Below are positions 37,181 through 38,146 of a DNA stretch of 64,000 bases, in pieces. This stretch comes from Desulfosudaceae bacterium. GTDB taxonomy: Bacteria; Desulfobacterota; Desulfobacteria; Desulfobacterales; Desulfosudaceae. The stretch covers positions 2,336,001 to 2,400,000 of the forward strand of contig CAXXDV010000001.1 in assembly GCA_963674745.2 (NCBI GenBank). Reading direction: 5' to 3'. The stretch's first letter is position 1, and each line of letters starts with the position of its first letter. The position numbers and the translations under genes are program-made. Below the pieces are notes generated by a model that did no database searches, had not been told where the DNA came from, and saw only the letters and a list, made by a program, of their open reading frames with translations.

Positions 37181-38146
37181 TTAAATAACAAAGATCAGGA
37201 TGAACGCGATGACCAGGGAATATATTCCGGTTGACTCCGATACCGCCTGACCGACCAGCATGGTCCGGGTCAGAATGCCCGCGTGTTCTTCATTTCTGCC
37301 GATTTCCTGAATGGCGCTGCCGGCCGTCATCCCTTCGCCGATTCCCGGCCCGATGGCGCCGATACCCATACAAAGCCCGGCGGCAACCAGTGCGATAGCA
37401 GCCGCAATGTCATTGGTCGGGTCGCACTTTCTGAACAGAAGTATCATGCTGATTAACAGGCCGTAAACACCGGTGGATTCAGCAACGGCCATGCCCAGCA
37501 GCATGACACTGGTAACCTGCTGGATCCCCTGTGGTTTACGCGCGATGGCCTCGCAGGCGGCCTTGGCCGCGAAACCTTCGCCGATGGCCGGTCCGATAGC
37601 CGCCAGTCCGACCGCAAAGCCGGCGCCCATAATGGCCGCCCAGGTCGGGGCAATCGGAAAATCGGAAAAGTTCAGGAACATCATGGTCAGCGCGATCGCC
37701 AACGCGTAAATGGCGGTTGTCTGGGATATGGAGGCGCCGATCAGCATATTGGTCGTAAGTTTGTCTTTGACTTCCGGCTGGCGGCTGATACCCGTACAGC
37801 AGGCGCCCGCCGGGAGGCCGGAACCGATACCGGCCCCGATGGCACCGAATCCCATGCATAACCCGGCGGAAATAAGAATAAAAATTGAAATTGTGGCTGT
37901 CTCGTCGATGGTGAACAGCAGCATCATGGCAACCAGCAGTGCGAAAATAGCCGAGGTCTCGGCAATGGCCTGTCCCATGAGCATATTTTTTAAAATATCA
38001 CCGGATCTTTCAGGGGACCGGCTGATGGCTTCACTGGCGCAAGAAGCCGTATATCCTTCACCGACAGCCGCACCGATGGCGCCCAGACCGATTGAAAATC
38101 CGGCGCCCAGCATGGCGGCTACACTAATCCACGATTGAATATCCAT
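37181..38146 (-). CDS. atpE: Four-hairpin (quadruplicated) ATP synthase F0 subunit c
   Basis: Four ~80-aa c repeats with loops RSP, RQP, RKP, RNE and outer-helix motifs [28 protein letters not shown]. Confidence 0.92.

Follow-up and report, generated by a model that had tools for sequence, protein, structure and literature searches.

A fused four-hairpin c subunit with one predicted dead ion site in a second, F1-less Fo cluster of a Desulfosudaceae bacterium

The window analyzed in this study, a stretch of 64,000 nucleotides from a Desulfosudaceae bacterium (GenBank assembly GCA_963674745.2, contig CAXXDV010000001.1, positions 2,336,001 to 2,400,000), encodes an F-type ATP synthase c subunit in which four hairpins are fused in a single chain of 321 amino acids (aa), here termed c4. 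We propose, with a probability of about 0.62, that c4 is a rotor subunit sharing a mixed ring with a co-encoded single-hairpin c, in a second Fo of the Na+ type that most likely docks on the only F1 of the genome, and that each copy of c4 leaves the ring with one ion site fewer. The number of ion sites in a c-ring sets the number of ions paid per ATP. Among bacterial F-type enzymes, the only studied precedents with a partly dead fused c are Acetobacterium woodii and its clostridial relatives, whose fused c is a double hairpin. The gene and its hairpins (R1 to R4) are located as follows:

37181..38146 (stop codon included), minus strand: c4, F-type c subunit (321 aa) in which four hairpins are fused; open reading frame (ORF) with four matches to PF00137 (E 9.2e-63)
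37907..38146, minus strand: hairpin R1 (aa 1-80); live carboxylates E30 and E63; T64, S65 and F68 predicted to face the dead R2 site
37661..37906, minus strand: hairpin R2 (aa 81-162); predicted dead, with S109 and Q142; T143, T144 and Y147 would complete the R3 site
37424..37660, minus strand: hairpin R3 (aa 163-241); live, with E190 and E223; S224, T225 and Y228 would complete the R4 site
37184..37423, minus strand: hairpin R4 (aa 242-321); live, with E271 and E304; S305, T306 and Y309 would be offered to the next subunit in the ring

In the ORF list of the window, the frame of c4 comprises 321 codons and begins at the first ATG after a stop. The Pfam family ATP-synt_C matches it in four stretches (208.8 bits against a cut-off of 24), and the best of these, residues 173-236, corresponds to profile positions 1-60, i.e. 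to the whole 60-position profile. The NCBIfam models of F-type c likewise give four matches each. A hairpin hidden Markov model (HMM) derived from the copies present in the window puts the borders at residues 1-80, 81-159, 168-240 and 243-321. The family-wide ligand positions 32, 65, 66, 67 and 70 are occupied in R1 by E30, E63, T64, S65 and F68. The ligand strings are G-E30-G and E63-T-S-A-I-F68 in R1, G-S109-G and Q142-T-T-A-I-Y147 in R2, G-E190-G and E223-S-T-G-V-Y228 in R3, and G-E271-G and E304-S-T-G-I-Y309 in R4. Hence, the conserved outer-helix Glu of F-type c is kept in R1 (E63), R3 (E223) and R4 (E304), and R2 possesses Q142 instead. The original prediction had described four c-subunit hairpins within one 321-aa chain; frame and Pfam matches confirm this, its ligand strings are exactly those given here, and the four hits it expected from an ATP-synt_C scan were obtained. 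Identity with V/A-type subunit K/c was considered for c4 and rejected: the scores are 108.4 bits for NF004913, 84.1 for NF011483 and 54.5 for NF005124, versus cut-offs of 211, 188 and 127.

The four hairpins are mutually only 32-44% identical and appear to be old copies; R4 shares 64% identity with the single c of the same operon. An alignment of 20 orthologues contains 108 invariant columns at a mean column identity of 74%; E30, E63 and F68 of R1, Q142 and T143 of R2, and Y228 of R3 are invariant in all of them. The AlphaFold2 model of c4, calculated with these orthologues, consists of eight long helices (mean predicted local distance difference test, pLDDT, 94.0; predicted template modeling score 0.90). 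The ratio of nonsynonymous to synonymous change (dN/dS) against the window's c4 is 0.10-0.23 at near-saturated dS. Between two relatives with unsaturated synonymous change (L012 and L013) the value for R2, 0.097/0.62, is like that of the live hairpins, and the gene as a whole gives 0.089/0.56; the dead hairpin is thus maintained as carefully as the live ones.

These data also bear on the suspicion that c4 is an artefact, i.e. four tandem c genes misjoined by the assembly, or else a decaying pseudogene. Short-read contigs do break inside R4, where R4 resembles the single c. However, uninterrupted fused c genes (about 321-326 aa or longer) are present in 27 of the 41 genomes of the window's order including its own: in the window's family, 9 of the 12 remaining genomes have one, as do 17 of the 28 from elsewhere in the order. 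These unbroken orthologous frames, free of stops between the repeats, as well as the dN/dS ratios, the invariant columns and the low mutual identity of the hairpins, reduce the chance of an artefact to practically nil. A search for sequencing runs containing the operon listed none of RNA. Of four runs that were compared, two, both of one sample, yield contigs that reproduce c4 with 0 differences; the sample is probably the source of the assembly, and the agreement is therefore not independent.

Which residues form a common site depends on the direction in which neighboring hairpins are paired. In the ring of Fusobacterium nucleatum, Na+ is bound by Glu32 and Glu65 of one subunit and by Ser66 and the Val63 carbonyl of the adjacent one, and Tyr70 and Thr67 complete the ligand network (PMC3692424). 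The rule given in the ProAD supplement classifies a hairpin as Na+-binding if it contains [Q/E]..E, with [S/T][S/T/Q]xxY in the previous hairpin. We tabulated 668 in-chain adjacent hairpin pairs from 207 distinct multi-hairpin proteins; because these are related by kinship, the numbers are pattern counts and not a test statistic. Tyr70 of hairpin i and Glu65 of hairpin i+1 occur both in 105 pairs and neither in 539, compared with 22 pairs with Glu only and 2 with Tyr only. In the opposite direction there is no positive link (78/228/154/208). Moreover, the last hairpin of the chains retains S-T-x-x-Y even after the loss of its own carboxylate, and the first one nearly always retains Glu/Glu.

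For Ser and Gln of R2 to share a single dead site with Phe of R1, the Ser/Thr/Tyr ligands have to be supplied by the hairpin before. The covariation supports a model in which Ser109 and Gln142 face Thr64, Ser65 and Phe68, and with it the earlier suggestion that all degenerate ligands fall into the one R1/R2 site. The ProAD rule agrees: the R1, R3 and R4 sites as well as the single c follow it, but the R2 site does not. The pattern predicted to be conserved, S/Q in R2 and Phe in R1, is indeed conserved among 29 four-hairpin proteins (28 database relatives and the window's c4): position 70 of R1 is Phe and position 65 of R2 is Gln in all 29, position 32 of R2 is occupied by Ser in 25 and by Ala in 4, and Glu65 of R3 is kept in 25.

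According to our model, c4, AtpZ, AtpI, subunit a, the single c and subunit b would form a second, Na+-type Fo in which c4 fills four neighboring positions of the ring and copies of the single c fill the remainder. Each site would be composed of Glu32 and Glu65 of one hairpin together with Ser/Thr66, Thr/Ser67 and Tyr70 of the hairpin before. R1 would be live, completed by S-T-x-x-Y of the preceding subunit, which may be a single c or another R4; R3 would be live by means of T-T-x-x-Y of R2, and R4 by means of S-T-x-x-Y of R3. The R1/R2 interface (T64, S65 and F68 with S109 and Q142) would be unable to hold an ion, and each copy of c4 would therefore cost the ring exactly one site. With N hairpins and k copies of c4, a ring would thus carry N-k ions in each turn, equal to (N-k)/3 for every ATP. 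If the ring contains 11 hairpins, a size suggested by the likeness of the helix-1 glycine motif to solved Na+ rings, one c4 would reduce the sites to 10 (3.3 ions per ATP) and a second c4 to 9 (3.0), compared with 3.7 for single c alone. Na+ is the predicted coupling ion, since all ligand positions match those of the Na+ ring of F. nucleatum.

The dead site could also be a tolerated by-product without energetic meaning, if c4 chiefly sets the assembly or size of the ring as a pre-formed nucleating arc. One c4 per ring costs one site in about eleven, which is a small change, and the position of the gene varies among close relatives, which may alter its dosage. Yet the loss of sites is graded and directional, with three, two or one live sites in four-hairpin forms and mostly one in five- and six-hairpin forms, and the neighbor ligands decay jointly with the carboxylates, as would be expected from selection on site number. 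An assembly role as the main function thus seems unlikely; as an additional one, it is compatible with a site-reducing rotor subunit.

The mixed ring itself is suggested by the partner of c4. Our survey of gene context included 80 named public loci, of which 57 possess a c of at least three hairpins. In 56 of these 57, a single-hairpin c is located directly beside the fused gene, irrespective of whether the latter consists of three, four or five hairpins. Among the related genomes with a fused gene, 26 out of 27 contain the partner c. Its motif is always E..ESTxxY, and 43 columns are invariant in 19 sequences, with a mean column identity of 85%. The ligand positions of R3, R4 and the single c match those of the solved Na+ rings 3zk1 and 1yce without exception. 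Structure prediction of a complex of c4 and single c lends slight support, passing at a score of 0.59 (best of three controls, 0.00; contact agreement between runs at least 98%, partner pLDDT at least 81). The mark for a pass was reached by 116 out of 157 solved complexes and 2 out of 215 mismatched pairs, and a passing score of 0.60 or less was observed in just 18 of the 157 solved complexes and in both passing mismatches.

The partner c also argues against rings made of c4 only, for example of three copies with 12 hairpins, 9 sites and 3 ions per ATP, with the single c in separate rings and hence two kinds of rotor. The ligands of c4 would permit this arrangement: S-T-x-x-Y of R4 and Glu/Glu of R1 would let c4 close on itself with live junction sites, and the fusion would tie the number of hairpins per ring to multiples of four. 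On the other hand, the single c accompanies fusions of every length alike and is more conserved than the fused c (85% versus 74% mean column identity); the one solved case, A. woodii (4BEM), is mixed; and chains of three, four, five and six hairpins, each on its own, would result in very different ring sizes on near-identical a subunits. We therefore give c4-only rings little credence, about as little as a pure assembly role, and prefer the mixed ring.

The operon, all on the minus strand, has the order c4-atpZ-atpI-atpB-atpE-atpF; hence, only the atpZ-like gene, atpI and atpB separate the single-hairpin atpE from c4, and Fo subunits a and b are co-encoded with it by atpB and atpF:

36860..37150, minus strand: AtpZ-like small membrane protein (ATPase_gene1); PF09527, E 5.1e-14
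36462..36863, minus strand: AtpI-like protein; PF03899, E 4.2e-05, 24.3 bits, just below the cut-off of 25.1; position conserved in relatives
35785..36501, minus strand: atpB, subunit a of the orphan Fo; PF00119, E 1.8e-51, full profile; one of the two a genes of the genome
35482..35724, minus strand: atpE, single-hairpin c of 80 aa; PF00137, E 2.3e-19; E30...E63-S-T-G-I-Y68, full two-carboxylate Na+ motif
34821..35300, minus strand: atpF, b-type peripheral-stalk subunit of 159 aa; PF00430, E 5.5e-15
34219..34824, minus strand: SCP2-domain protein; PF02036, E 6.6e-14; overlaps atpF by 4 base pairs (bp)

The separate atpE reported earlier is thus a real gene of the same operon. From c4 to the SCP2 gene, the intergenic distances are 30, -4, about -40, 60, 181 and -4 bp. 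A consensus scan for promoters and terminators between 33900 and 38600 gave no result above chance (4 promoter-like sites versus 5.9 expected; 9 terminator-like sites versus 6.2 expected). Within the window's family, the fused c gene is found at three places in an otherwise identical operon (L012-L022): before atpZ, between atpI and atpB, and between atpB and atpE. The SCP2 (sterol/lipid carrier) gene occupies the site where six related clusters have a second b subunit of about 200 aa. A phmmer search of eight related loci revealed no relatives of the SCP2 protein; ORFs past atpF in two loci (L115:2606-3073 and L106:4678-5100), which by eye had been guessed to be SCP2-like, were discarded because Pfam matched nothing in them.

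The original prediction had placed c4 as the first gene of the F0 operon. The gene does head its operon, but there are no alpha, beta or gamma genes in this cluster, which is a second, orphan Fo. In the genome of 5.55 megabases, ATP-synt_C is found at six places, i.e. the four hairpins of c4, the single c, and a third c at C1:1588205. The latter belongs to a standard cluster atpZ-atpI-atpB-atpE (locus L003, G000:C1:1586768-1588450), and its motif Q..E-S-L-x-x-Y has no polar residue at position 67 and is one ligand short of the Na+ motif; under the ProAD rule, the c of the standard Fo would be of the H+ type. In total, the genome contains two a genes, one gamma gene and one alpha/beta pair of F-type size. 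The only F1 cluster, b'-b-delta-alpha-gamma-beta-epsilon, is located at G000:C1:1974942-1981008. With one F1 set elsewhere and a separate standard Fo, the window's cluster therefore represents a second Fo without F1, and the genome possesses two Fo sets of differing predicted ion preference and a single F1, with which the standard Fo pairs.

The same imbalance recurs in the order. For the 41 genomes, the window's own included, we compared gene counts, with fragments of one gene counted once in G010 and G013. Genes for a outnumber those for gamma in 26 out of 27 genomes with a fused c, the exception having two of each; among the 14 genomes without one, the counts are equal in 13. The remaining genome, of the same genus and 71% complete, contains atpZ-atpI-a-c-b on a contig whose beginning lies just ahead of atpZ. 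The layout of the window's genome recurs in two complete genomes, each with b' and b in the F1 cluster, atpZ-a-c as the standard cluster, and a fused-c cluster with two b genes of its own. The genome G015 has two fused-c loci, with a four-hairpin gene (C184:15447-16397) and a five-hairpin gene (C236:2292-3494), and possesses three a genes and one gamma gene. Among the named public loci, those of Desulfobacterales read atpZ-atpI-a-c4-c-b-b, with no F1 genes within 8 kilobases, and an alpha gene is absent from 35 out of 36 loci with four- or five-hairpin genes, some of which are short.

Such an Fo could also operate independently of F1. It might, for example, be a gated Na+ conductance or a rotor with another coupling partner, and c4 would tune it. 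This would suit the lack of F1 genes here and in 35 of the 36 loci, as well as the SCP2-domain gene in place of the second b subunit in the window's genome. Conversely, the known role of b subunits is to hold F1, and the orphan clusters retain them: a b-type stalk subunit is kept in the window's cluster, and b together with a second b in relatives. Furthermore, family members with three hairpins reside in complete F1Fo operons of the type a-c3-c-b-delta-alpha-gamma-beta-epsilon in 14 out of 21 loci (Cloacimonadota, Latescibacterota, Armatimonadota and Victivallales). The E. coli Fo without a plug is an ion leak, and an unplugged Fo would be one here as well. Because the cluster keeps a stalk subunit and fused-c relatives are found in complete F1Fo operons, use of the genome's only F1 is most likely; an F1-free Fo is improbable, marginally more so than the two rivals of the mixed ring considered above.

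Several points weigh against the proposed mixed, Na+-type rotor on a shared F1. That c4 and the single c occupy one ring is something we infer, and the pass in the complex prediction may stem from a memory of the solved structure 4BEM. Specificity for Na+ is read from motifs, and the sharing of F1 is deduced from gene counts. With one b gene in the window's cluster and two in those of relatives, the peripheral stalk may be incomplete or borrowed. Matches to c4 and to the partner c are absent from the same-genus genome G002 (99% complete) and from G012, a member of the same family (95% complete), each of which has one a gene; the fused-c cluster is therefore dispensable. Finally, the pairing rule has exceptions: of 127 live hairpins in the family, 22 follow a hairpin that lacks Tyr70. 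Among these exceptions are two relatives (L015 and L016) and four database proteins, all of them four-hairpin chains, which have Glu/Glu in R3 and T-P-x-x-L instead of T-T-x-x-Y in the preceding R2; they may represent intermediates in which a site loses its neighbor ligands first.

The c4 protein is a member of a large family: among 5.8 billion clustered proteins, our search yielded 2039 matches at E <= 0.001 with lengths of 176-562 aa; the best 120 of these comprise 28 four-hairpin, 75 five-hairpin and 17 six-hairpin chains. Where database names are given at all, they read only 'ATP synthase F0 subunit C', and the named sources are Desulfococcus, Desulfonema ishimotonii, Desulfosalsimonas, Desulfosudaceae, Desulfarculaceae and Thermodesulfobacteriota. 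Homologues carrying the names of Desulfococcus species and D. ishimotonii are 60-62% identical to c4. Among 1.84 billion representatives at 50% identity, 91 matches reach E <= 1e-30, and the best 150 include 65 four-hairpin, 44 three-hairpin and 31 two-hairpin chains. Across the phylum, 37 out of 401 sampled genomes contain a match at E <= 1e-50. The original prediction knew of no characterized bacterial F-type c with four hairpins. Our text search likewise found no published description of three- to six-hairpin F-type c in sulfate reducers, though Matthies et al. 2014 (A. woodii ring structure) and Brandt and Muller 2015 (hybrid-rotor survey) may describe longer fusions; on the other hand, such genes are common in this order, annotated as 'subunit C'.

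The loss of sites within the family is graded. Four-hairpin chains have three live sites, as in the window, two, or one. In the named public loci, four-hairpin genes most often show EESAF SQTPF GQTTY EESTY, with two live sites; a single one is left in EESAF SQTPF GQTPF NQSTY, and most five- and six-hairpin chains retain the first site only. A hairpin phylogeny (FastTree, 100 single hairpins) is based on 81 columns and is, with so few, indicative only. In this tree, all clostridial hairpins group together with their own single c in a single clade (support 0.97, 15 of 15 tips), while the first hairpins of the window's family, including c3 of other phyla, group with a support of 0.81, the internal hairpins with 0.96, and the last hairpins with 0.93. 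The topology suggests that the family has one origin, that it grew by copying of internal dead hairpins, and that it is independent of the clostridial c1.

Two further kinds of chain were noticed among the homologs. P0122 (1139 aa) and P0133 (968 aa), both from the 50%-identity representatives, for which the ligand reading covers positions 65-70 only, are single chains of 15 and 13 c hairpins, respectively, with Glu in every one, and are thus ring-sized. In a metagenome-assembled genome of an uncultured Acetobacterium (region L045:8001-8960), a 350-aa c with the pattern QETSF QQTTY QETSF QQTTY precedes two single c genes and a complete F1 set; it has the appearance of an A. woodii-type double hairpin copied in tandem.

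The three- to six-hairpin family with its stepwise loss of sites provides a ready-made series for relating site number to ring size and ion/ATP ratio, and biochemistry is within reach because cultured relatives (Desulfococcus species, D. ishimotonii) carry the gene. Since the cluster is without an F1 of its own, it poses a testable question, namely whether one F1 serves two different Fo motors per cell. A further-reaching idea, which is conceivable but rather doubtful at present, is that many Desulfobacterales run one F1 on two interchangeable motors, a standard Fo and one of the Na+ type. The c subunits of three to six hairpins would then act as a gearbox for the Na+-type ring in which one, two, three or more hairpins per chain serve as dead spacers, shifting the ion/ATP ratio from about 3.3 down towards 2; c4, with three live hairpins and a dead one, would be the mildest setting, and the Fo that is mounted would be set by salt or energy supply.

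Of the known systems, A. woodii is closest to c4. Its c1 (PDB 4BEM chain J) is the best solved match in sequence (phmmer E 3.6e-27) and the best fold match of the c4 model (4bem_J; Foldseek E 4.2e-07, template modeling (TM) score on target 0.79, root mean square deviation 1.6 over 156 columns); solved chains cover at most about half of the model (query TM <= 0.45). The two hairpins of c1, ETSGIF and then QTTGIY, show the same pattern as R1 and R2, with one dead site per chain. In both cases, an F-type operon encodes a multi-hairpin c, with a single-hairpin c that has the Na+ motif beside it, and the clostridial loci of our survey share the A. woodii arrangement with a double hairpin. A passage on hybrid c-rings describes partly dead fused hairpins in the c1 of A. 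woodii and of Clostridium aceticum (PMC7911925). The systems differ in the number of hairpins (two in c1, four in c4), in position 32 (Gln in c1, Glu and hence two carboxylates in c4), and in the F1 genes (atpHAGDC), which are present in the A. woodii operon and absent from the window's cluster. The original prediction had likened c4 to an A. woodii c1+c2+c3 in one chain. This comparison holds for the predicted function and for the ETSxxF/QTTxxY pattern shared with 4BEM chain J, but not for descent: common ancestry of c4 with the clostridial c1 was rejected, as the clostridial hairpins form a separate clade (support 0.97, at the limited resolution of 81 columns), which indicates that the window's family is a separate invention.

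The c11 ring of F. nucleatum (PDB 3ZK1; PMC3692424) shares Glu32, Glu65, Ser66, Thr67 and Tyr70 with R4 and the single c. Unlike the c4 system, it is composed of identical single hairpins, has no dead site, and belongs to a complete F1Fo. An extra Fo has been reported from the same bacterial group, i.e. an ectopic duplicated full F0 set of Desulfococcus oleovorans apart from its main locus, whose a and c group with Thermotogae (Koumandou and Kossida 2014, PMC4154653). The passages concerned treat this set as a species-specific oddity and mention no fused c, whereas the extra Fo is widespread in our data. Thermotogae are among the two-carboxylate species in the list of the F. nucleatum paper (PMC3692424). 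For Desulfatiglans, the relevant part of a 2026 paper describes two to four atpE copies, without fusions.

Longer fusions are known from archaea. The authors of a preprint (10.64898/2026.10.01.756066) name a 13-hairpin A-type c/K chain of Methanopyrus kandleri, regard hairpin fusion with or without site loss as a way to change the number of ions per ATP in archaea, and characterize F-type rings as 'predominantly' single hairpins, with A. woodii as the mixed case; the corresponding ProAD passage speaks of two hairpin domains or more in general terms and gives logos for one and two. These archaeal proteins are part of A/V-type enzymes, in contrast to c4, which scores below the V-type K cut-offs.

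Like the window's Fo, the N-ATPase is a second rotary system with a two-carboxylate Na+ motif beside a standard F-ATPase; its operons, however, have their own alpha, beta, gamma and epsilon genes, of which the window's cluster has none. Identity with the N-ATPase was rejected, given the lack of F1 genes and the scores of the single c (67.8 bits versus 130.85 for TIGR03322) and of subunit a (127.6 versus 302.1 for TIGR03306); c4 exceeds the TIGR03322 cut-off (184.2 bits) only as the sum of its four hairpins. One related genome (G282) contains an N-ATPase-type operon in addition. In its gene content, c4 corresponds to an F/V-hybrid rotor, i.e. a multi-hairpin c with a lost carboxylate and a single-hairpin c in an F-type operon. 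Judging from sequence, c4 would thus be an independently evolved and longer hybrid-rotor subunit in an F1-less second Fo; the solution known from A. woodii would have been reached a second time, in a four-hairpin chain.

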